64,000 nucleotides of DNA from Pseudobdellovibrionaceae bacterium (GCA_025354795.1 JANXMF010000075.1:3161-67160), one strand, 5' to 3'. Positions 6,643 through 27,378 are shown, counted from the stretch's first letter. The notes: a model not told the origin generated them from the letters alone. Program-made: numbers and translations.

Positions 6643-6849
6643 TGAGCTCCCTAGGATCAGTATACTGGCAAAGCCGGGCCGATTCTATCGGCTGAAAGGA
6701 TAGCGACAAAGCGAGTCCAGCCATGGACTTAGGCCTAGTTTTGAGGGAAGCGTTCGCGACCAACGTCGCACCCAAGGAGTTCAGCGCGGATTTTTTTTCA
6801 GCTTTGTCGCGGGGTTCCGATAAGACAATATATAGTGAGGAAGAACTCT

Positions 6850-7776
6850 ATGCTTAAACTCAGGATGTTCACATTCATTTTGGTTTTCCAAACGCTGCTA
6901 CAGCCACTGCAATTCGCGTTTGCGGACCTCGTTCGAAGCCCCCGCCTGTGCCAAGACCCGGATCTAGTAAAGTGCAAAGATCCCCTCATAAACAAGTGTT
7001 GTTCAAAGCCTGGCAATTACGCATTGATTTCCTCGCAACTCAACTCAACTAATCGCTGTCAACTTTGGAAAGACCCAGAGTTTCAAAAAAAGCTTAAGGA
7101 GCTGTGTGAAACGGAAGCTAAACCCGGACCATGTGGTGACCAACCGTGCCCACCAACAGTTCCTGTACCACCCCCTATTACGCCTCCACCGCCACCACCA
7201 CCTCCTCCACACGAGCCTGAGCGACGTGAACGGCGTGAGCGTGAGCGAGAGGGCGGGGGATTGGACGACTTTTTCTCCGGCACCGGAGGCTTGCTTGTCG
7301 GAGGCTTGATTGGCGGCATTGGTGGCTACCTTATCGGTGACAAGTTAGGTTACAACCGCGGCCGACAATCGATGTATCCGCCGTTTGGAGGACCCATGTT
7401 TGGTGGCCCTGGAATGGTACCTCCGCGGATGGGCAACCCAATGATGATGAACGGAATGATGGGCGGCCAAATGTTTTTGTCTCCTCCCGCATTTTTTAAC
7501 ACTGCGGGTGGGCGTGGATTGCCGCAATACTACCAGGCACCCTTTTCAGGAGGAGGACTTGGCGGTGGCGGTTTTGGTGGCTACGGAGGTGGCTACGGAG
7601 GTGGCTACGGAGGTGGCTACGGAGGTGGCTACGGAGGTGGCTACGGAGGTGGCGGAGGCTATCAAAATTATCAAGGCTACGGACTTGGATTTCAGAGTGG
7701 ATATTCAACGGGTGGATTTGGCGCGCAGTATCCTGTAGCCGCCCCCGCTGTGCTGTCATTCCCCGGTCCGCGTTAG
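6850..7776 (+). CDS. secreted Cys-rich / poly-Pro / Gly-Met / Gly-Tyr low-complexity protein
   Basis: It has a signal peptide (MLKLRMFTFILVFQTLLQPLQFAFA), then a Cys-rich module, PPPITPPPPPPPPPH, ERRERREREREGGG, a Met/Gly-rich tract, and (GGYG)n. The ATG at 6850 is preceded by GAGGAA. The ORF opens at GTG 6835. Confidence 0.6.
   Translation: MLKLRMFTFILVFQTLLQPLQFAFADLVRSPRLCQDPDLVKCKDPLINKCCSKPGNYALISSQLNSTNRCQLWKDPEFQKKLKELCETEAKPGPCGDQPCPPTVPVPPPITPPPPPPPPPHEPERRERREREREGGGLDDFFSGTGGLLVGGLIGGIGGYLIGDKLGYNRGRQSMYPPFGGPMFGGPGMVPPRMGNPMMMNGMMGGQMFLSPPAFFNTAGGRGLPQYYQAPFSGGGLGGGGFGGYGGGYGGGYGGGYGGGYGGGYGGGGGYQNYQGYGLGFQSGYSTGGFGAQYPVAAPAVLSFPGPR
7576..7647 (+). repeat. perfect tandem repeat, 12 bp x 6 (ggtggctacgga), encoding GGYG repeats
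   Basis: I read six identical consecutive 12-mers directly from the sequence, followed by a degenerate seventh unit. Confidence 0.95.
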
Positions 7777-11578: not shown

Positions 11579-12017
11579 AACGTCGAAAGCGGGGATCGTT
11601 GGTAAACACCATCGATTTACCCAGCGACATCAGGACCAGTACCAAAACAAAAACACACACGGCACCCGCGGCAATGAGCGTAAAGAGCACGGCCGGAAAC
11701 ACTAGAAAAAAGAGCGCCACTCCGGCCCACACCCCATCAGGGTGGCTAGCCGTTTGCGCCAAATTCACGCAAATCCAATCCAACAAAACTGCCGGCAAGA
11801 GGATCGCGGTCATGATTTTCAGCGTCTGAAAGACGATGGCGAGGCGCGCACCAAAACCGGAGGTGGGGCGCAACAGGGTGCGCCCGGGCTCGATGATTTC
11901 AGGATTTTCGAGCGAGCCCAATTTGGCTTTGCGGGTAAAAAGTTTCATATGCTGAAAGGCGTAACATAATTTTCGTGGCTCGTCGAGTTCCCAGTTAAGC
12001 AGCAGCTTTTTGAACAC
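11562..12017 (-). CDS. hypothetical membrane protein
   Basis: It is a 151-aa ORF with three predicted hydrophobic helices. It overlaps the 3' end of the upstream EAL gene, so the two are likely co-transcribed. Confidence 0.4.
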   Translation of the reverse strand: MFKKLLLNWELDEPRKLCYAFQHMKLFTRKAKLGSLENPEIIEPGRTLLRPTSGFGARLAIVFQTLKIMTAILLPAVLLDWICVNLAQTASHPDGVWAGVALFFLVFPAVLFTLIAAGAVCVFVLVLVLMSLGKSMVFTNDPRFRRFTGPK

Positions 12018-13191
12018 TCTGAGAGTTTAATTTCAAAAACTGCGCCAGCGGCAAGGGCTTGCAAAACATATAGCCCTGGCCCATTTCGACACCGAGTTTT
12101 TGCAGCAGCGCAAATTCCTCAGCGGTTTCGATGCCCTCGGCAATCACTTGCAGTCCGAGTAGGTGGCCCATATGAATCAAGGATCGGATGATCGATTTTG
12201 ATTTGCGATGGCTCAGCATATTGGCCACAAAGCTACGGTCGATTTTTAAGTCTGTCAAAGGCATGGTCGCCAAGTACTGCAAACTCGAAAAGCCGGTGCC
12301 GAAATCGTCGATGGCCAGTTGGTAACCGTGCAAGCGGCACTTATTCATAGTGTTCAGGGCCTCGGGTCCGACCATCATCACGCGCTCGGTGACTTCTAAC
12401 TTAATCTGTTTGGCGTTCAAATTTAGGCGTTGGCGATGGAACTCAAGATGCTCGACAAAGTCGGGATCGCTGAATTGGCGGCCGCTGACGTTGATGCTTA
12501 CAAAGAAATCGTGCGGCATTTCGGCCACTGTCTGGAGATGATTAAGGTCTTCAAGGCACTTTTCGATGACCTGGCGGCCGGCCCGCAGTACCAGACTTGA
12601 CTGCTCAAGTATCTCGATAAACAGCAAAGGCGGAATGACATCACCTTCGGAGGAGATCCAGCGCAGCAGCGCCTCGCAGCCTCTAATTTTACATGTCTTA
12701 AGATCATAAATAGGTTGATAAAAAGGTACAAATTCTTTGTTGGTGAGGGCCACGGCCACGCGCGACTCGAGATCCATACGCTTGATCGCCGCCTGTTTGT
12801 CGGTGGCGAAAACGTTAGTAAGCAGGACCGGTAAGGAGAGCGAGCCTAGCGCATTGTCCGGCATGGACATGCGGTTGTGCAGCGATTTCAGCAGGAGGCG
12901 CACCACCGGATCGGCATCGTCGATACGCTCATTCAACAGTTCACGATTGACGTAAATCACTTGGGTTTCACCAATGGCGCGGGCGCAGGTGTGGCGGTTC
13001 TCGCCTAGGACCAGCGAGACGTCACCAAAAATATCGCCTTCACTAAGTGTCGCGAGTGGAACCTCAATATCGTCTTTGACAATAAACAGCGAAACACCCC
13101 CGCGCACGATCAAATAGGCGCAGTCACCGACATCGCCTTCGCGGTAAATCATTTCATGCGGCACAAATTTTTCTTTGGTTTTCTTGGCCAT
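11995..13191 (-). CDS. cyclic-nucleotide-binding domain + EAL domain c-di-GMP phosphodiesterase
   Basis: The N-terminus is a cNMP-binding fold (FGDVSLVLGENRHTCARA). The EAL domain carries a full catalytic set: EALLRW, EVTE, DDFGTGFSSLQYL, KIDRSF, EGIET and QGY. Confidence 0.85.
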   Translation of the reverse strand: MAKKTKEKFVPHEMIYREGDVGDCAYLIVRGGVSLFIVKDDIEVPLATLSEGDIFGDVSLVLGENRHTCARAIGETQVIYVNRELLNERIDDADPVVRLLLKSLHNRMSMPDNALGSLSLPVLLTNVFATDKQAAIKRMDLESRVAVALTNKEFVPFYQPIYDLKTCKIRGCEALLRWISSEGDVIPPLLFIEILEQSSLVLRAGRQVIEKCLEDLNHLQTVAEMPHDFFVSINVSGRQFSDPDFVEHLEFHRQRLNLNAKQIKLEVTERVMMVGPEALNTMNKCRLHGYQLAIDDFGTGFSSLQYLATMPLTDLKIDRSFVANMLSHRKSKSIIRSLIHMGHLLGLQVIAEGIETAEEFALLQKLGVEMGQGYMFCKPLPLAQFLKLNSQSVQKAAA

Positions 13192-15666: not shown

Positions 15667-16844
15667 ACCTGTTCATATTCCTCTTATTTAGTGTGGTGGT
15701 TCACGCCGATGACTTTCCCTTCAGTTACGAGGATTCTCGCGCGCAATTTGTCGCACTTTGTTTAGAGGCACGCAAGACTCCGCAGGATTACTGCGAGAAA
15801 TTTAAGGTGCCGAGCGCGCGCGATGCCGATCTCACCATTGACTATGGTTACTTTTCCAGACCCGGGAACGCAGGTTTAGTGGTGCTGCAGTCAGGAATCC
15901 ATGGTCCGGAAAGCTATGCCGGCGCGGCGGTGCAAAAATTATTTTTGCGCAAGTATCTGACGACCTACCTCGAGCATGGCGTTGACGTCTTGTTGATTCA
16001 TGCGCTCAATCCCTACGGTTTTAAGTACGCGACCCGAGCGGATGAGGACAATATCAATCTTAATCGCAATTTCAGTAGCGACGGCCTGATCTACCAGGTT
16101 CACAACGAAGGCTATGTCCGCATGCGCGATATGTTTGAGCCGCAGGGCCCGGTGAATTCGGTGTGGTGGTCTTCGCTGATGAGTCACGTGAGGATTGCCA
16201 CTAAATTTATTTCACTGATGTTCCATAGCCGCGAGATCTATCAAGCCATGAATTCAGGACAATTTGAATCTCCCAAAGGACTTAGCTATGGCGGTCACAA
16301 AGGCCAAATTCAACACCTGTTCTTACAGAAGCTCTTGCCGCCACTATTTGCGGCCCATTCCGGCGCTATTTTGTTCTTAGATTTTCACACGGGATTAGGT
16401 CAGGCCGGTACACTCCAAATCCTGAACGGTCTTGACCCCGACGCTAAACTTCTCAAGGCCGTGCACGCAAGAGTGGATGCGCTCCACACCGAGAAAATAG
16501 AAATGGTTGATGCCAGCGACCGCTCTCATCCCGATTATTACACGACCTATGGCGACGTCACCGATTTCGCCGTAAAGCTCGGGCCCCAACCTAACAGAAT
16601 TCTCGGTTTAACCATGGAGTATGGGACCATGCCGCTCAATATCCTGGGAAAGCTGCGCTCAGCAAGTCGCATGATTCTACACAACCAGGCGCACGCCTTC
16701 GGCTGTAGCACCCCTGAGGTGTGTGCGGAGGTCGATCAAAATTTCCTCGAGATGTTTAATCCGCTAGATCCGGTCTGGCGTCAAAAGGTAGTCTCAAAGG
16801 CTGATCAGGTTTTTTCGGTGTTGGTGAATTGGTTTTCAGTTTGA
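15663..16844 (+). CDS. M14-like zinc carboxypeptidase/deacylase family protein (DUF2817-like)
   Basis: It has the HxxE zinc motif (GIHGPESY), NPYGF, NLNRNF and a second zinc His (FLDFHTGLG). It is coupled by a 4-nt overlap to the SBP gene. Confidence 0.65.
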   Translation: MNLFIFLLFSVVVHADDFPFSYEDSRAQFVALCLEARKTPQDYCEKFKVPSARDADLTIDYGYFSRPGNAGLVVLQSGIHGPESYAGAAVQKLFLRKYLTTYLEHGVDVLLIHALNPYGFKYATRADEDNINLNRNFSSDGLIYQVHNEGYVRMRDMFEPQGPVNSVWWSSLMSHVRIATKFISLMFHSREIYQAMNSGQFESPKGLSYGGHKGQIQHLFLQKLLPPLFAAHSGAILFLDFHTGLGQAGTLQILNGLDPDAKLLKAVHARVDALHTEKIEMVDASDRSHPDYYTTYGDVTDFAVKLGPQPNRILGLTMEYGTMPLNILGKLRSASRMILHNQAHAFGCSTPEVCAEVDQNFLEMFNPLDPVWRQKVVSKADQVFSVLVNWFSV

Positions 16845-16867
16845 CCGCAACCGCCATCTCGGTTGAT

Positions 16868-18337
16868 ATGCCCAACATGAAGACGGCCATCGTTTTGAGC
16901 ACGCTGAACGCCCGCTATAACCATGCCAGCCTCGGTTTGCGCTATCTGCACGCCAATCTGGGCAAACATCGCCACCACGCGATTTTGCACGAAGCCACCA
17001 TCAAGACCCCGCCCGACCAGGTTGCCCGCGAGATCTTAGCACGCTCCCCCCGCTTGGTCGGATTTGGAGTTTACATTTGGAACACCTCGCAAACTCTTGA
17101 GGTTGTACGCCAACTCAAGCAGCAGGCCCCTGAGCTGCTGATCGTGCTCGGTGGACCTGAGATCAGCTTTGAGACCGAATCACAGATTTTATTTAGTGAA
17201 ACCGATTTTGTGTTCAAAGGCGAAGCCGATTTCACCTTCCGCGATTTCGTCGCGACCTGGCTGGAAGATGGGATCCTTCCCCTAAGTAAAGTCATCGAGC
17301 CCCGGTTGCCGGACTTGAAATCCATAGTTTTGCCGTACTCAGAATATAGCGACGAAGACATTCGCCACCGCACTCTCTACGTCGAAGCCTCGCGCGGCTG
17401 CCCCTACAAATGCGAGTACTGCTTGTCCGCCCTAGACCTTTCGGTCCGCAATTTCGATAGCGAGCGATTTTTAAATGAAATGCAACGACTGATTGAACGG
17501 GGAGCCCGGCAGTTCAAATTCGTTGACCGCACCTTCAATCTTTCACCCGCGACCAGCACCCGTATTCTCCAGTTTTTTCTGGAACATATTCACCTTGGTC
17601 TCTTTCTGCATTTCGAATTGGTGCCAGATCGCTTGCCCGATGAACTTAAAACGCTGATTGAACAGTACCCGCCGGGATCGTTGCAATTCGAGATTGGCAT
17701 TCAGACTTGGAATCCAGACGTCGCCCGCAATGTGAGCCGTCGGCAAAATTACGAGCGCATCGTCGCCAACCTAACTTATTTGCGCGAAAAAACCGGAGTG
17801 CATACGCACGCGGATCTCATTGTTGGATTGCCGGGCGAGTCCTGGACCAGCTTTGTCGCAGGCTTCAATGCGCTCTATGAACTGCAGCCCGATGAAATTC
17901 AAGTTGGTCTGTTGAAGCGACTGAAGGGTACTCCTATTATTCGCCACGATCATAAGTTCGCCATGAAGTATTGCGCGGACGTGCCGTTTCAAATTCTTGC
18001 CAACAAAGACCTCGACGCTGACCAGGTCCTGGCCCTAAAAATTTTCGCCGATTTCTGGAATGCGATCGCCAATTCGGGGCGATTTCCGGGGCTACATGCC
18101 CTCGTGCGTGAACAGCGGCGGCACGACCCATTTACATTTTTCAACGATCTGGCCCAACACCTTTTTTGCGTGTTTGGACGTACGCATTCCATTCATCTTA
18201 AGGAACTCGAGAGCGAAATTTGCGATTACTTACGAACCAATGGCTGGGATGAGTGTCATGGAACGTCACCGACATTGTTACGGCGAGGTCATGGCGCGAT
18301 CCCCGCGCGGCAGGCCCGGCATTTGGGGATAGGCTAG
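16868..18337 (+). CDS. B12-binding-domain radical SAM protein (DUF4080-type)
   Basis: It has an N-terminal B12-binding-like domain (TAIVLSTLNARYNHASLGLRYL) and a CxxxCxxC cluster (GCPYKCEYC). The ATG at 16868 is more likely than the ORF opening at 16829. Confidence 0.8.
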   Translation: MPNMKTAIVLSTLNARYNHASLGLRYLHANLGKHRHHAILHEATIKTPPDQVAREILARSPRLVGFGVYIWNTSQTLEVVRQLKQQAPELLIVLGGPEISFETESQILFSETDFVFKGEADFTFRDFVATWLEDGILPLSKVIEPRLPDLKSIVLPYSEYSDEDIRHRTLYVEASRGCPYKCEYCLSALDLSVRNFDSERFLNEMQRLIERGARQFKFVDRTFNLSPATSTRILQFFLEHIHLGLFLHFELVPDRLPDELKTLIEQYPPGSLQFEIGIQTWNPDVARNVSRRQNYERIVANLTYLREKTGVHTHADLIVGLPGESWTSFVAGFNALYELQPDEIQVGLLKRLKGTPIIRHDHKFAMKYCADVPFQILANKDLDADQVLALKIFADFWNAIANSGRFPGLHALVREQRRHDPFTFFNDLAQHLFCVFGRTHSIHLKELESEICDYLRTNGWDECHGTSPTLLRRGHGAIPARQARHLGIG

Positions 18338-18384
18338 GGTCTGTCTGCCAGTTTCTTGGGGACTCGGGCTCCTGCCCATGCCGC
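18334..18384 (+). repeat. truncated copy of a short palindromic (MITE/REP-like) element
   Basis: Positions 18341-18384 match 23053-23096 at 43 of 44 positions. Positions 18334-18362 also match the reverse complement of 23138-23165 with a few mismatches. Confidence 0.8.
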
Positions 18385-18492
18385 ACGTGTGTAACTGTTT
18401 TTAGGCGGACCGAGGCATGATTTTGTGGCTTCCTTGAGTATTTAGGCGACTGGCCTGTTATCCACTGCGATTTTTGCCGAAACGCTCAGTGC

Positions 18493-19953
18493 ATGCGGGA
18501 CGAGCCAAAACGCGCAGTAGGCGCCAATATTTTCCTAAAACCTCGACAAGTCGAGATCGAAGCGCGCCTTGGTAAGCGGGTCGACATTCGCGAAAATGAC
18601 GGGGTTACGGCCGAGATCTTACACGGCGGGACGTTTGTGCCGGTGCGAGTTTGGGATCTGACAACTTCGGGTGCTTGTGTTGTCACCCGCGAAAGCCTTA
18701 ATTTTAAAATGGGCGACTCGGTCCAGATGCGTATCTGTTTTTTGACCGGCCAGATGGTGACTTCAGATTATCGTATTTGCTGGGTGAAGGATCGCGCCAG
18801 TGGTCAAAAGGTGGGCTTGAAAATGTTGGCGGATCAGGGCGGTGAACGGCCACTGCCGGAAGCACAAGACAACATGCTGCGACTGACCTCCAGCTATCCT
18901 ATTAGCGGTTACATTTACAATCACGTGAACTACCAGGAGCGATCAATTTTCAGGCTGGTCGCCATATCCGCGGGCAAAATCATCCTTGATGTTTTAGACC
19001 GGGAACATTTGTTTTTCCCTCAGCAAACCATTGAATTGCATTTTTCATTGCAAACGTCGTCGTCCGAAACGCTTTTTGGCAAGATCGCCCGCGTTTTGCA
19101 AGTGAAACGCGATTCGGTTCGCTTGCTGATCGAGGTACCAGGCGAGGTTCTGTCGAAGCGGCTCGAGCGCGACATCATAAATCATTTGATTTTAGATCCT
19201 GGCCTTAACATGGAAAAGATACGCAACGCCGGCTTTAAGATTCGCAATATTGCGAGCGGCTTTCGCTTTAGATTTGTCCGGACCCAAGAGGAATATGAGC
19301 AGGTCCTCAAGCTGCGTTTTGCGGCCTATGAAGCTGCCGGAAAACTGCCTGAAGGCGCAACCTTACACACAGTGATTGCGCCGCTGGATCGGATTAGCCG
19401 CATTCTAATTGCCCTGCATGGAGATAACGTAGTGGCTTCGGTCGCCATGTCGTTTCCTGAAACCGAAGATGTCATTTTGGACACTGAAAAACCGCTGAAG
19501 GGTGGTTACCAAGGCAAGGTCCCGCAAAAGACCGAGATGATTGAAATCGCACGTTTATGTACGGCCCCTGAATATCGGGGTGGTGACCTTCTGCTCCGCA
19601 TGTTCGAACATATTTATCGAATCTTTGCGACTTCAGGGCGTCGCTATTTAATTTCCAGCACCGATAAGAAGCTCTGGCCTATTTATAAGAACCTTGGATT
19701 CAAAAAAGTAGGCCTCTCCTATCCCCATCCTTATTTGGCGGGAATGATTCACGAAGTGATTCTCATTGATTTAACGGTGCCAGTGACCGGAGCTTCAATT
19801 GGATTATTGCGCTGGCATTACTTGTATTCCAAAATGACGGAATTCATGCAACGGCGACAACCGCTGAAGCGCACCGGTGTCGGCCGCCTTCGCTATCTCA
19901 CTTTTCTGGGCGCCTCGAAAGTAATTGGCATTATCGAACGACTGCGGTCCTAA
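18493..19953 (+). CDS. PilZ-domain protein fused to a FeeM-like GNAT-fold N-acyl amino acid synthase domain
   Basis: The N-terminus has a PilZ-like RxxxR (RLGKR) and D-x-(S/T)-x-x-G (DLTTSG), followed by a second degenerate PilZ-like beta-barrel segment. The C-terminus (FRFRFVRTQEEYEQVLKLRFAAYEAAG ... IEIARLCTAPEYRG) resembles the N-acyl amino acid synthase / AHL-synthase-like GNAT fold. Confidence 0.55.
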   Translation: MRDEPKRAVGANIFLKPRQVEIEARLGKRVDIRENDGVTAEILHGGTFVPVRVWDLTTSGACVVTRESLNFKMGDSVQMRICFLTGQMVTSDYRICWVKDRASGQKVGLKMLADQGGERPLPEAQDNMLRLTSSYPISGYIYNHVNYQERSIFRLVAISAGKIILDVLDREHLFFPQQTIELHFSLQTSSSETLFGKIARVLQVKRDSVRLLIEVPGEVLSKRLERDIINHLILDPGLNMEKIRNAGFKIRNIASGFRFRFVRTQEEYEQVLKLRFAAYEAAGKLPEGATLHTVIAPLDRISRILIALHGDNVVASVAMSFPETEDVILDTEKPLKGGYQGKVPQKTEMIEIARLCTAPEYRGGDLLLRMFEHIYRIFATSGRRYLISSTDKKLWPIYKNLGFKKVGLSYPHPYLAGMIHEVILIDLTVPVTGASIGLLRWHYLYSKMTEFMQRRQPLKRTGVGRLRYLTFLGASKVIGIIERLRS

Positions 19954-20609
19954 AAAATCGCTGCGCCGTTTTCAAACGCACCGGCTAACATATTGTAATG
20001 CAGATGACAAGAGCAACGGGTGGCATAAGCCACGTCTTCAAACGTCTTTTCATCCGTCACGAAGTGCTCAATGTATCGATCCATTAATTTATTGTGACCG
20101 ATATCAACGGTGGCGTGTTCTTCAAGGAAGGTCAGTGCCGAATCCGGAATACCCAGCGATTTCAAGCGATCAATATGAACTCGTCCCTGTTGTGTTGGTA
20201 AAAACTCAAGGTGAAAAAGGTATCCTAGATATGAAACCGGCGTGCCCAGCTGAATCTGCATCAGTGCGAAGGCATTGAACGCCGCAGTGGACGGCAAGGG
20301 CCGCGTGTGCTGAAGCTTTTCAGTGTTTTCGCCAAGGGATTTTAAGTCATTTAGGGCAAGAAGGTCGTGGCCAATTTCTGAAATAGCATGCCGATAAAAC
20401 ATGCCGATCATGTCGCGAGGATTATCCTTGAAATACAGTGTCGCAAACGCTTGAATTTGCGGATTCAAGCCGGCGTGATGATAAGTCTCTAGTAAGAACC
20501 CTTTATAATGATTAATTTGAAAGTCGCCCGACTGAAGACGAGTCATCCACGGGAATTTATTCACTTTTGCCATCTCATCTCGCCAAACGTTGAGCAGTCG
20601 ATCTTTCAT
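19950..20609 (-). CDS. heme-oxygenase-like fold di-iron enzyme (CADD/PqqC/UndA-like 'iron-containing redox enzyme')
   Basis: It is an all-helical 219-aa protein with carboxylate/His motifs spaced as in HDO enzymes: LLETYHH, ISEIGH (ExxH), HLEF and TVDIGH (DxxH). Confidence 0.5.
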   Translation of the reverse strand: MKDRLLNVWRDEMAKVNKFPWMTRLQSGDFQINHYKGFLLETYHHAGLNPQIQAFATLYFKDNPRDMIGMFYRHAISEIGHDLLALNDLKSLGENTEKLQHTRPLPSTAAFNAFALMQIQLGTPVSYLGYLFHLEFLPTQQGRVHIDRLKSLGIPDSALTFLEEHATVDIGHNKLMDRYIEHFVTDEKTFEDVAYATRCSCHLHYNMLAGAFENGAAIF

Positions 20610-20743
20610 ATAGTTCTCCGAAGGATGATGAACATACTATAGCTATAACCGATCGCTCGACTAGGCGCAATATTAATGCGCCCTGGACTCCTATAAACAT
20701 TCATAATTTATAGAAAATTCCGAAAAGTATTCTATGAGGGTAC

Positions 20744-22918
20744 ATGTTTGATCCGCGCTTGACTAGACCACATTATAAGACCGTGATCTTCGCCTCCTAT
20801 TTGGAGCTCCTATCTAAAAATCGTCCAGAGATAAACGTAAATATTTTAGTAGAGAAAGCTGGATTGTCGCTTGAGTATGTACGCGACGAAAACAATTGGG
20901 TTTCGGTGACTTTCGAAAAGCGGATCATGGATCTCATCATTGAACAGACAGGCGATCCGAACATTTTTTTTGCAGCCGGCGAGCAAGGCGTCTCCCGCAC
21001 CGGCCTCGGTGAAGGACTCCATTTCCTCGCGTCAAACTTCATTCCCCTCGATGCCATTTACCGCAGTTTGCCTAAACTGACGGGTTTGCTGAACAAGGTC
21101 ATCTCGGTCGAAATCACTGAACGTCGTAGCGGCCACTTTAAATTCTTGTTTAAACCCAAGCTTGACGAACTTGACACGGAGGAACGCGAAATCCTGGTTT
21201 CGCGCATGCCATATGTCATGGCGAACACCATGGGTTATTATAGCAAAATTCCAACCCTCAAGCGTTTGCCGCCGGCCCAAACTACGGTGACCCAAGTGGA
21301 TGCCGAATTAGGAAGCTACTCCCTAGAACTTAGCTTTTTTGAAGGCACGCTCTGGGTGGCTCCTGCTCTAAAAACACTTCCCATTCTGTCTTTTTTTGGC
21401 TTAGTTTGGGGTATGCTCGAGTGGGCGAGATTTCCAATCGAAATCTCCCTATTGGCCGCGGCTTCAGCCGTAACCATGGCGATCGCGTTTTACTTCTCTT
21501 ACCAAAATAGAAAGCTTCGCGGTGTCGCGGCACAATCCGAGCAGTCACTTTATCGCCTGGACATTCAAAATAAGGATCTCTATGACGCAAAATTAAAATT
21601 GAAACGCAAACTCGATGAGTCCTTGGCGACTTTCGAGCTTGTGACTCACATGATTTCAGCGACTCTTGAAGAGGAAGTCCTCGAGTTTGGCTGCGAGTGT
21701 TTGGTCAACAATTTGAAATATGATCGGGCATTTGTCCTAATTTACGACTCGCAGGCCAACTGCCTCCGCTTGGCGGCGTCCAAGGGTCTTTCGGATCAAC
21801 TCAAAGCCGGTATGGAAAAACTCGTGCTTCCGGTTGAGATCGATGACTCGGATCCCACCAAGTTCTCCAACGTTTTTCGCATGAAACAGCCGCTTCTTGT
21901 TAAGGATGTCACCGAACACATGAGCCGGCTGGCCGATCCGACCAGTTTGATGGTTCTCAAAGTATCGGGGTCGCGATCGTTCGTGGCCGCGCCGCTTTTT
22001 ACTCAAAACAAGTCACTCGGTATTCTGGTCGCCGACTGCATCTCCAAGCAGAAAGTTATGACTGAAGATGACTTGCGCCTGATTTCAACAGCGGCTCAAC
22101 AGATAGCGATTGGCATTGAGCAACAGCGTTCCAAGCAAGAACTGATCGATGGGTATCAGAAGGAGCTCGAGCTCTCCGAGTCCTACTCACGCTTTGTTCC
22201 CTTTGAGACACTGGAGCTCCTCAAATACAAAAACATTGTTGACGTTAAGATCGGCGACTATGTTGAAACCCATGTCGCGATCATGTTTAGCGATATCCGC
22301 GGATTTACCACACTTTGCGAGACGATGACCCCCGCGGACATTCTCAAGTTTCTGAATTCTTATTACGCCCGGCTCTCACCGGTCATAAAAAGCCATGGCG
22401 GGACGATTGATAAATTTATGGGCGATGGAATCATGGCCATTTTTAGCAAGGCCGACCAAGCGCTGGCGGCCGCAGTGGACATGCAGCGCTCAATTTTTAA
22501 GTACAACCTAGATCGTCACGACCCACAGCGGGAGCCAATCCAAGCGGGGATAGGCATTGCTGCCGGGAAAGTGGTGTTTGGTTCACTGGGGACCGACAAG
22601 CGATTGGAGCTTACGGCGATTGCCGATACAGTCAATGTCGCGTCCCGCCTGGATGGTCTTTGTCGCGAAACCGGTCAGACAATCATGATCACCGGCTACA
22701 ATGAAAATACGCTTGGGCAGTTTCCACAGCTAAGCTTTTCTCACCTATTGCCGCTAAAAGTGAAAGGTCGCGCGAGCGACGTTCACGTGATTGCCGTGAA
22801 TGATTTAAATTATTTTTCCGCCGTTGACGAGACCCAATTGTCTCCGGCGCAAAAGGTCTATCTGGCGCGGGAACGAGAGTTTTGGTTGCAACGCCAGAAC
22901 CCCAAGCAAGCGGCTTAA
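20744..22918 (+). CDS. membrane-anchored GAF-domain class III adenylate cyclase
   Basis: It has an N-terminal sensor region, TM helices, a coiled coil and a GAF-like segment. The cyclase domain carries the metal Asp residues (MFSDIRGFT, FMGDGIMAIF), an adenine-specifying Lys (IDKFMGDG) and the TVNVASRL transition-state motif. Confidence 0.8.
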   Translation: MFDPRLTRPHYKTVIFASYLELLSKNRPEINVNILVEKAGLSLEYVRDENNWVSVTFEKRIMDLIIEQTGDPNIFFAAGEQGVSRTGLGEGLHFLASNFIPLDAIYRSLPKLTGLLNKVISVEITERRSGHFKFLFKPKLDELDTEEREILVSRMPYVMANTMGYYSKIPTLKRLPPAQTTVTQVDAELGSYSLELSFFEGTLWVAPALKTLPILSFFGLVWGMLEWARFPIEISLLAAASAVTMAIAFYFSYQNRKLRGVAAQSEQSLYRLDIQNKDLYDAKLKLKRKLDESLATFELVTHMISATLEEEVLEFGCECLVNNLKYDRAFVLIYDSQANCLRLAASKGLSDQLKAGMEKLVLPVEIDDSDPTKFSNVFRMKQPLLVKDVTEHMSRLADPTSLMVLKVSGSRSFVAAPLFTQNKSLGILVADCISKQKVMTEDDLRLISTAAQQIAIGIEQQRSKQELIDGYQKELELSESYSRFVPFETLELLKYKNIVDVKIGDYVETHVAIMFSDIRGFTTLCETMTPADILKFLNSYYARLSPVIKSHGGTIDKFMGDGIMAIFSKADQALAAAVDMQRSIFKYNLDRHDPQREPIQAGIGIAAGKVVFGSLGTDKRLELTAIADTVNVASRLDGLCRETGQTIMITGYNENTLGQFPQLSFSHLLPLKVKGRASDVHVIAVNDLNYFSAVDETQLSPAQKVYLAREREFWLQRQNPKQAA

Positions 22919-23052
22919 AACTGCTCAATACTCACCGCGCCCGAGAAGCACCGCAGGTTTGCGACCGACGACGCCACTGCGCTGCTGCAGGTGGAGCGGG
23001 GTCCCAAGGAACGCGATTGGCTCAATACGTGGTTCATGACTCGTTAACGAGC

Positions 23053-23165
23053 CTGTCTGCCAGTTTCTTGGGGACTCGGGCTCCTGCCCTTGCCGCCATC
23101 GGCCCTTCGCGCCGAACGCATCACGCTTGGCGGAAGTCCCCAAAAATCTGGCAGATAGGCCCTAG
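23053..23165 (+). repeat. 113-bp palindromic MITE/REP-like element (24-nt imperfect terminal inverted repeats around a structured core)
   Basis: The arm at 23053-23076 pairs with the arm at 23135-23158 at 22 of 24 positions, including one G:U that pairs only on the plus strand. The core has small hairpins GGGC-UCCU-GCCC and UCGGC-CCUUCGC-GCCGA. The left half is duplicated at 18341-18384. Confidence 0.75.
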
Positions 23166-23293
23166 TGTAGGTCAATAGATATTCATGAGCGGATGAAAGC
23201 GTTTGCGTGCGGCATCAATTCACATCTATTGGTCGATCTTTCAACATTTATCTAGATACGATATTTTTCTAAGTTTTCAACACGGGGGGAAAT

Positions 23294-26858: not shown

Positions 26859-27199
26859 TGGTGGCCCCAGACTGACTTGAACAGTCACGTCCTTGCGGAC
26901 ACTGGATTTTCTTACCACTCCGGCTTTCGCCGTCTCTCACTTCGAGAGTTTGTGGTCTGGACTATGCCTTAACCGTTTGTCTTTCGACCGTTAGGTCCCG
27001 CTCGTCTAGTCTCTACACCTTCACTGACATTTTCTCGTCAGAGCTTGGCTCGGCATTAGCAATCTGAAAATTTCAGATAAGCCTCTACCGAATTTGGGCG
27101 GTTCTACGTCCTCAGTTTCCCGAGTCTACGCACTCAAATTTTGTCGGCTTAAAACCGACCGTCTGAGTCCAGCGCGTCTACCAATTCCACCATGGGGCC
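26859..27199 (-). tRNA. tRNA-Leu (inferred anticodon CAA) interrupted by a group I intron; exons 27199-27165 and 26910-26859
   Basis: The acceptor stem pairs perfectly (GGCCCCA/UGGGGCC) and is followed by A73 and an encoded CCA. The D-arm is GUGGAAUUGGUAGACGC and the anticodon stem is CUGGA/UCCAG. The long variable arm is GUCC-GCAA-GGAC and the T-arm is GACUG-UUCAAGU-CAGUC. The joined exons are 87 nt. Confidence 0.9.
26911..27164 (-). ncRNA. group I intron, IC3-like, 254 nt, no internal ORF
   Basis: It contains GCCGAGCCAAGC and GAAGGUGUAGAGACUAGACG, which match the conserved core I recall from the Azoarcus tRNA-Ile intron and the cyanobacterial/plastid trnL introns. The helices I can assign are listed below.
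- P2: CUCGG-GAAA-CUGAG
- P3: CCGC/GCGG
- P4: UUCGGUA/UGCCGAG
- P5: AUCUGAA/UUCAGAU
- P6: CUGAC/GUCAG
- P7: GACUA/UAGUC
- P9: hairpins CUCUC/GAGAG and CGGC-GAAA-GCCG
The intron ends in a terminal G, directly before the 3' exon AAAAUCC. Confidence 0.85.
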
Positions 27200-27339: not shown

Positions 27340-27378
27340 TTTTGAGTCCAGCGCGTCGACCAATTCCACCAAGAGGCC
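27340..27378 (-). pseudogene. 5' fragment of an intron-less tRNA-Leu(CAA) (positions 1-38 only)
   Basis: GGCCUCUUGGUGGAAUUGGUCGACGCGCUGGACUCAAAA matches the spliced 5' part of the neighbouring tRNA-Leu at 36 of 39 positions. It reads straight through the exon junction (CUC|AAAA) and then loses similarity. I found no matching 3' half. Confidence 0.8.

Follow-up and report, generated by a model that had tools for sequence, protein, structure and literature searches.

Two copies of a short repeat lie on either side of a three-gene module in the stretch of DNA analysed here (64,000 nucleotides, hereafter the window). The question raised by this locus is whether they are the ends of one unit that carries the module, or two separate insertions that happen to flank it.

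Anatomy of the two repeat loci

The repeats and the genes between them are listed below by position in the window.

18334..18364, + strand: outer left terminal inverted repeat, CTAGGGTCTGTCTGCCAGTTTCTTGGGGACT, an inverted match to 23135-23165 at 27/31 positions
18341..18384, + strand: direct repeat copy 1 (locus 1), a left-arm fragment without right arm and core
18493..19953, + strand: PilZ + FeeM-type N-acyl amino acid synthase, module gene 1 (Pfam PF07238, PF21926)
19950..20609, - strand: Haem_oxygenas_2 protein (iron-containing redox enzyme), module gene 2 (Pfam PF14518)
20744..22918, + strand: GAF + class III nucleotidyl cyclase, module gene 3 (Pfam PF01590, PF00211)
23051..23161, no strand assigned: long imperfect hairpin (palindrome) with a GC-rich core at 23077-23134, from folding of both strands and an inverted-repeat search
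23053..23096, + strand: direct repeat copy 2 (locus 2), the inner left arm of a near-complete element
23135..23165, + strand: outer right terminal inverted repeat, with CTAG at its end

The 44-nt direct repeat reported in the preliminary description was found exactly twice in the window, where chance would give none. Its copies (18341-18384 and 23053-23096) lie on the same strand, each between co-directional + strand genes, and are identical at 43/44 positions, the sole mismatch being A/T at 18378/23090. No homology was found past 44 (46) nt on either side of either locus, and the edges are sharp. An old segmental duplication was ruled out by this absence of residual homology outside the repeat.

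The match between the left tip of locus 1 and the right tip of locus 2 extends past the shared 44 nt, which is a new observation. Positions 18334-18364 match 23165-23135 in inverted orientation with a BLAST E value of 2.9e-5 (search within the window), and the consensus of this 31-nt inverted repeat is CTAGGG(T/C)CT(G/A)TCTGCCAG(T/A)TT(C/T)TTGGGGACT. Locus 1 begins with CTAGGGT... and locus 2 ends with ...GCCCTAG, and CTAG is thus present at both extremities of 18334-23165. The heptamer ctagggt of 18334-18340, previously described as reappearing inverted at 23159-23165, is indeed present there, at 6/7 positions (ctagggc) and not 7/7. Copy 1 had also been placed immediately after the stop codon of the radical-SAM gene; this has to be corrected, since the left tip of the element overlaps that codon, the TAG of the terminal CTAG being the stop at 18335-18337. 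The radical-SAM protein ends at the usual C-terminal position of its homologues, which makes this CTAG/stop a plausible original target. At the other end, the spacer between the cyclase stop and the repeat is 134 nt, near the ~135 bp given before.

The inner ends are different. No inverted partner for copy 1 was found downstream of locus 1, and the left arm of locus 2 lacks the terminal CTAGG, with AACGA at 23046-23050 instead. Taken alone, locus 2 has unmatched flanks (AACGA versus CCTAG) and thus no target duplication; the 4.8-kb unit 18334-23165 has CTAG on each side. Because CTAG is itself palindromic, it would look alike as a target duplication and as part of the inverted repeat.

Folding confirmed the palindromic nature of locus 2. 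The 26-nt arms at 23051-23076 and 23135-23160 are 88% complementary, and the hairpin of ~110 nt has predicted energies of -68.6 (+ strand) and -71.7 kcal/mol (- strand) (z = -6.5 and -6.8, respectively; 0/200 shuffles folded equally well). The hairpin is therefore strong on both DNA strands, which fits a palindrome at the DNA level. A G:U pair had been taken to favour a plus-strand RNA. This was not upheld: there are two pairs of the G:U type on the + strand (counting the 7-nt tip) and one on the - strand, a negligible asymmetry, and the folding energies showed no consistent strand preference. The size of the element (~113-120 nt, non-coding), its arms and its missing parts support the MITE-like anatomy proposed earlier, with a truncated locus 1 and a near-complete locus 2.

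When 18334-18384 was joined to 23097-23165, the hairpin reached -80.1 kcal/mol, versus -67.8 for the present locus 2. Hence, a join that removes one repeat and 4.7 kb yields a better palindrome. The predicted empty-site allele, between the radical-SAM and PAD genes, reads …GGGGATAGGCTAGTGTAGG…, with GGGGATAGGCTAGTGTAGGTCAA at its junction; the predicted junction of an intact element is ...CCCATGCCGC/CATCGGCCC..., and that of a circle would be AACGAGC-44mer-ACGTGTG (23052/44-mer/18385).

The enclosed module and its relatives

The repeats enclose exactly three genes and no integrase, as first described, and Pfam confirmed the domains (PilZ+FeeM, Haem_oxygenas_2 and GAF+Guanylate_cyc). The two repeat loci are the only ones in the 64 kb and are placed exactly at the limits of the three-gene unit. 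PilZ-NAS fusions have already been reported (PMC4897644); no report was found, in the literature searched, of PilZ-NAS in fixed partnership with both a GAF-cyclase and a haem-oxygenase-like enzyme.

The three-gene unit is present, with order and orientation kept, in five related loci (L016, L017/L018, L019 and L020), which represent three neighbourhoods, all unlike that of the window. Within this unit, the homologues of the PilZ-FeeM synthase are 48–57% identical, those of the Haem_oxygenas_2 protein 69–78% and those of the GAF-cyclase 60–66%, and the identities co-vary across the three proteins. No flanking repeats were found around the module in the five related loci, and when the element was compared by sensitive BLAST with the window and the 20 loci fetched, only the three known arms were returned.

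The closest relatives are ~57–66% identical at the protein level, and the neighbours of the radical-SAM homologues (~65–66% identity) are entirely different, so that an empty site is unreadable there. Since the surroundings of the radical-SAM gene are also completely changed in these relatives, the varied contexts of the module may reflect ordinary rearrangement. The cassette suggested in the preliminary description is thus backed in one respect, as the bracket coincides with the exact limits of a unit kept in relatives elsewhere, and weakened in another, as relatives this divergent share little gene order in general. The module has a G+C content of 0.488 versus 0.532 in the flanks. A recent import based on G+C or GC3 was rejected, because the module is also ~3 points lower than its flanks in L017-L020 (but not in L016), and its low G+C is therefore not evidence of such an import.

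One unit or separate insertions

The two repeat pieces fit each other as the ends of one putative mobile unit would in this uncultured Bdellovibrio-like bacterium, possibly a composite or split unit bounded by MITE-like remnants and carrying the module. Our preferred but tentative reading, to which we give a little less than an even chance, is that both loci are remnants of one MITE-like family and together form one inverted-repeat-bounded unit, 18334-23165, with the module inside. Both outer inverted repeats are intact with CTAG tips, which bounds this segment as one unit. The outer ends (left in locus 1, right in locus 2) are mutually inverted and each abut CTAG, and both inner ends are disabled, locus 1 having no right arm and the left arm of locus 2 lacking its terminal 5 nt.

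Two histories may be proposed for such a unit. Two elements may have captured the three-gene module together, giving a composite without transposase that inserted at the CTAG holding the stop codon of the radical-SAM gene. Alternatively, this CTAG may have been the site of one resident element, whose left arm was split by the arriving module with duplication of 44–46 nt. Movement would in either case depend on an enzyme acting in trans (transposase or recombinase), perhaps IS5-like or IS630-like and targeting CTAG/TA; IS630 prefers TA within CTAG (cited in PMC2170065). Neither a parent IS nor a third copy of the element was found in the 64-kb window. Contigs from four metagenomes (Logan) were consistent with the same structure as the window, and neither an empty site nor a polymorphism was seen in them.

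The main competitor, which we regard as a serious minority possibility, is that an ordinary dispersed intergenic repeat (MITE/ERIC/REP-like) inserted twice independently and each copy decayed, with loss of the core and right arm at locus 1 and of 5 nt from the left tip at locus 2; the bracket would then be coincidental and would have had no part in the arrival of the genes. Repeats of this kind preferentially occupy the intergenic space that follows a gene, and many copies are truncated (PMC10969869). The module, moreover, looks old and vertically kept, its identities (48–78%) being in a similar range to that of the radical-SAM protein (~66%), and its low G+C is intrinsic. Against this, the two truncations must have spared both outer ends and disabled both inner ends, the only two loci in 64 kb must have landed precisely on the borders of a conserved unit, and locus 2 alone shows no target duplication. 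A third copy would help this explanation, and the start of one Logan contig (L007) at 23114 would fit its presence in that metagenome, since the first 31-mer of the contig ends exactly at 23144, the position from which the right arm is no longer a perfect complement of the left arm. This indication is weak, as breaks in contigs of this organism are also seen outside repeats. Elsewhere, the 21-mer consensus of both arms gave only 4 unrelated chance matches in GTDB species genomes and JGI metagenomes (a set without the source genome). The element was absent from the viral contigs, plasmids and phages searched, and its six-frame translation had no homologue among 5.8 billion proteins.

It is improbable that the 44 nt are the attL/attR core remaining after a small circle with the three genes integrated site-specifically (Campbell type), with a recombinase acting in trans or since lost (a satellite-like or Xer-exploiting element). 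The repeats do have the same orientation and sharp homology edges, and the flank pattern B-O-P' / P-O-B' is exactly that of integration into a resident palindrome. However, no transposase, integrase or other recombinase was found in the window (Pfam domains, ~52 ORFs), the only tRNA gene found in it lies 3.7 kb from the repeats and is unrelated to them in sequence, no dif-like or attC-like core was seen by sequence inspection, and no structure besides that of the half element was seen at the putative circle junction. The attC, dif and tRNA-att readings were rejected by this inspection and the lack of recombinases.

Still less credit is due to the reuse of one functional cis-element where two operons end, either as a structured 3'-UTR or mRNA stabiliser for the upstream genes or as a leader or operator for the downstream ones, a role suggested by the position of both copies between co-directional genes and by the high stability of the hairpin as RNA: the hairpin can form at locus 2 only, the - strand folds equally well, and the five related loci have no equivalent flanking the module. 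Neither copy has a U-tract or a terminator-like site (counts in the promoter/terminator scan were not above shuffles), and Rfam gave nothing relevant for the whole window at the gathering threshold or for the element region at E 10. The plus-strand RNA, 3'-UTR or terminator role previously proposed was thus not supported, and the element does not have the features of an intrinsic terminator or a known structured RNA.

If the one-unit reading holds and the bracket is causal, a tiny non-autonomous repeat would have captured and relocated a whole second-messenger/lipid-signal module, outside the field of clinical resistance genes; the example would come from a poorly sampled lineage of predatory bacteria and would define a MITE family, new and targeting CTAG. 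As a long shot, the 4,832-bp segment 18334-23165 might be a still-mobile transposon without transposase, with the ends of an undescribed MITE family, that moves a complete signalling module (PilZ-regulated N-acyl-amino-acid synthase, diiron/haem-oxygenase-like enzyme, GAF-cyclase) between genomes or loci of Bdellovibrio-like bacteria, or else the module might have entered the palindrome via staggered cuts ~44-46 nt apart, which would leave a target duplication of uncommon length for an insertion in bacteria. If the bracket is coincidental, the element would be another intergenic palindromic repeat specific to one lineage, of use only as a marker of assembly breaks and for strain typing. The conserved three-gene module is interesting in its own right.

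Comparison with known systems

The element is small (<~500 bp) and non-coding and has terminal inverted repeats, as MITEs do. MITEPsy1 of Pseudomonas syringae, derived from the IS5 family, is 100 nt long with 18-nt inverted repeats and a CTAG/YTAA duplication (PMC3189936). Like the element described here, it is ~100 nt and non-coding with inverted ends; its inverted repeats start with GG..., the duplication at CTAG/YTAA is of 4 nt and the transposase acts in trans. The present element differs in its 31-nt inverted repeats and its GC-rich self-pairing core, and a similarity in sequence is not expected.

Correia elements of Neisseria are imperfect palindromes of 100–170 bp with 23–30-nt terminal repeats. 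The same dimensions (100–170 bp imperfect palindromes, 23–30-nt terminal repeats) have been reported for ERIC/IRU in Enterobacteria and QMITE2 in Coxiella (PMC10969869). All of these resemble the present element in being intergenic, often just after genes, and in folding as long hairpins. They occur, however, in tens to hundreds of copies per genome, whereas 1.4 copies are visible here in 64 kb and none in public collections, and the present element has no predicted promoter- or terminator-like activity. The unit of ~113-120 nt, the 31-nt arms and the CTAG tip do not fit REP/BIME, which have a 20–40-nt palindromic unit with a conserved GTAG head. REP/BIME also come with a RAYT (Y1 transposase) gene and hundreds of copies; no RAYT gene was found in the 64-kb window (Pfam).

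Locus 2 resembles the attC of integron cassettes in being a ~110-nt imperfect palindrome after a gene block that contains no recombinase. In contrast to such cassettes, inspection of 23040-23175 revealed no R''/R' core sites (RYYYAAC...GTTRRRY) at the stem ends, and IntI is absent from the window; of the three genes in the block one is on the opposite strand, and the sequence common to the repeats is 44 nt long, compared with a core of 7 nt. A further hairpin of this type, as in an attC array, was not found in the 64-kb window. An integrase-borne genomic island was ruled out by the lack of a recombinase in the window and of any relation between the repeats and the tRNA gene.

Mobile insertion cassettes (MICs) carry passenger genes, with no transposase, between the ends of a small inverted-repeat element. 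Pairs of MITEs have also been documented to mobilise intervening genes, and class 1 integrons of Acinetobacter sit between two identical MITEs (PMC10969869). The known MITE-flanked blocks have two complete MITE copies and occur in several contexts, whereas the left copy here is a 51-nt end fragment and one occurrence is known. Like those blocks and MICs, 18334-23165 has passengers without a transposase, correctly inverted ends and outer junctions compatible with a duplication, and its matching ends around three passenger genes give it the layout of a composite or MIC-like unit.

Organisation of the repeat and its surroundings

Across the 64 kb of the window, the 44-mer CTGTCTGCCAGTTTCTTGGGGACTCGGGCTCCTGCCC(A/T)TGCCGC has exactly two copies, located at 18341-18384 and 23053-23096, which lie on the same strand and differ at one position (0 matches were expected from shuffles). 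Checking against the window sequence confirmed the coordinates given in the preliminary description, as well as the gene content of the enclosed block. No homology between the two loci was found past the repeat edges, where it stops abruptly. The features involved are as follows.

16829-18337, B12-binding radical-SAM/DUF4080 gene, upstream of the block
18334-18384, locus 1, left-arm fragment of the element
18493-22918, three-gene module: PilZ+FeeM-type N-acyl amino acid synthase (gene 1, + strand), Haem_oxygenas_2 (gene 2, - strand) and GAF+class III cyclase (gene 3, + strand)
about 23051-23165, locus 2, near-complete palindromic element

Locus 1 consists of the outermost left tip CTAGGGT and the 44 nt of the left arm, followed by unrelated sequence; neither the right arm nor the core is present there. 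At locus 2 the left arm lacks the terminal CTAGG, its place being occupied by AACGA; a GC-rich core follows, then the right arm, with GCCCTAG as the outermost tip on the right. The outer ends of 18334-23165 are therefore both intact, mutually inverted and with CTAG at each tip, and the inner ends (right side of locus 1, left side of locus 2) are both defective. The inverted match between 18334-18364 and 23135-23165 covers 27 of 31 positions (E 2.9e-5, search within the window). The 7-nt ctagggt reported to reappear inverted at locus 2 does have an inverted partner there, but it matches at only 6 of the 7 positions.

The arms of locus 2 (23051-23076 and 23135-23160) are 88% complementary, and the locus folds into a single long hairpin on the + strand (-68.6 kcal/mol, z -6.5) and on the - strand (-71.7 kcal/mol, z -6.8). 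When 18334-18384 was joined to 23097-23165, with one repeat and 4.7 kb removed, the stem became 6-7 pairs longer and the folding energy of the palindrome was -80.1 kcal/mol, as compared with -67.8 kcal/mol for the unjoined locus 2. No matching flanks were found around locus 2 by itself. The stop codon of the radical-SAM gene is the TAG of the left CTAG; since the C-terminus of the protein coincides with the ends of its homologues, this gene shows neither truncation nor extension.

The whole window is core chromosome of an ordinary kind, with haem genes, radical-SAM genes, DUF2817 and an ABC transporter, followed downstream of the block by PAD_porph, HtrA, astacin, rimP-nusA-infB-truB-pnp, mutL, miaA, relA/spoT and T2SS/PilM genes. 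No integrase, transposase or RAYT domains were found in the 64 kb. Homologues were labelled by their sources as Bdellovibrionia, Bdellovibrionales or Bdellovibrionota, and the nearest non-identical relatives showed protein identities of only about 57-66%.

Other features were observed in the same window. A tRNA-Leu(CAA) gene (26859-27199, - strand) is interrupted in its anticodon loop, at position 35-36, by a group I intron of 254 nt. This interrupted gene was missed by the default ARAGORN run and by the Rfam gathering scan; ARAGORN with the intron option gave an 87-nt tRNA, and Intron_gpI matched 26941-27161 under the gathering score (30 bits, E 1.8e-5). An extra copy of the 36-nt 5' exon (27343-27378, - strand, 92% identity) is located 179 nt upstream of the genuine exon with no recognisable 3' half, and may be a tRNA fragment or the scar of an intron or tRNA duplication. 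A Pfam-less ORF (6835-7776, + strand) contains a perfect 12-nt tandem repeat at 7576-7653 (GGTGGCTACGGA x 6.5), encoding GGYG-type glycine/tyrosine repeats.

The three-gene module in related loci

Order and orientation of the three genes were kept in all five related loci fetched (L016-L020), with the module spanning 6958-11389 in L016, 10001-14561 in L017, 10001-14445 in L019 and 4598-8937 in L020. The identities of the three proteins to those of the window co-vary (57/71/64, 50/70/61, 48/69/60 and 57/78/66%). L017 and L018 share one set of neighbours, largely found also in L019, which belongs to a separate NCBI assembly; in all, three neighbourhoods other than that of the window occur across L016-L020 (cyclase/hypotheticals, Nramp...Endonuclease_NS and Rhomboid...hypothetical). 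Neither flanking repeats nor element-like sequence was found around the module in these five loci. The window repeats thus stand at the exact limits of a conserved, relocatable unit. The differing contexts alone do not prove mobility, as the radical-SAM gene, too, has completely different synteny in its relatives. The G+C content of the module is 0.488 versus 0.532 in the flanks, and its genes rank among the six lowest of the 52 genes in the window; low G+C as a sign of recent import was discounted, since an offset of about 3 points recurs in L017-L020 (it is absent in L016).

PilZ-NAS fusions are on record (Nas354/Nas343), and cAMP has been reported to activate another NAS (PMC4897644). The cyclase as constant neighbour suggests an N-acyl amino acid product under cyclic-nucleotide control. 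A protein with cNMP-binding and EAL domains (11995-13191, - strand), encoded 5 kb upstream of the module, is by domain content a putative cyclic-nucleotide-gated c-di-GMP phosphodiesterase, and could provide a link from cAMP/cGMP to c-di-GMP signalling in this neighbourhood.

Copies in public sequence data

Searching with a 21-mer that spans both arms, we obtained only chance matches from GTDB species genomes and from JGI metagenomes; viral contigs, plasmids and phages gave no match, and the six-frame translation of the element had none in a protein search. Short Logan contigs of four metagenomes encode identical proteins. These contigs end at window position 18370 (L005/L006) and resume at 18348 (L008/L009), exactly as expected of a k=31 graph when a repeat occurs twice and differs by the A/T variant, indicating that the same two-locus structure is present in the four metagenomes. 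The 44-nt repeat is thus an assembly breakpoint in these public short-read data. L008 and L009 differ from the window by one SNP (19029, A versus C). Another Logan contig begins at 23114, its first 31-mer ending at 23144, the first base where the right arm stops perfectly complementing the left arm. A third copy with identical core would be compatible with this start, a weak hint because contigs of this organism break at non-repeat sites as well. A PilZ-NAS protein identical to that of the window is recorded on an 80,939-bp NCBI contig.

Nature of the element and comparison with known systems

The anatomy agrees with a MITE-like element at the level of DNA rather than with an RNA device: the element is small and non-coding, its terminal inverted repeats are 31 nt long, its core is GC-rich and palindromic, its tips are CTAG, and it folds equally on both strands. 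The last point argues against the plus-strand RNA role slightly favoured in the preliminary description, and a reused RNA or regulatory element is very improbable.

The intact outer and defective inner ends, the better palindrome reconstituted by joining the loci and the coincidence of the repeats with the limits of the conserved unit favour the tentative reading of 18334-23165 as one unit bounded by inverted repeats. This might be a composite, transposase-less unit carrying the module; alternatively, arrival of the module would have split a single resident element, duplicating 44-46 nt. We infer all three of mobility, enzyme and order of events. The main rival, which we consider a realistic if somewhat less probable explanation, is an ordinary dispersed repeat, with two independent copies that decayed separately. 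Integrase-less att sites are unlikely. The defining features of integron attC, dif and tRNA-att sites were absent, and these readings were rejected.

The arrangement is real and has a neat structure; in kind it is familiar, a palindromic repeat of MITE-like type that possibly bounds a gene block. Its interest would rise with the discovery of an empty site, or of the 4.8-kb unit at a second location. CTAG is a documented target: MITEPsy1, of 100 nt with 18-nt inverted repeats, has a CTAG/YTAA duplication (PMC3189936), and the TA within CTAG is preferred by IS630, according to Tenzen and Ohtsubo (1991) as cited in PMC2170065. A MITE may be present in one to hundreds of copies, and genes between paired MITEs can be mobilised (PMC10969869).
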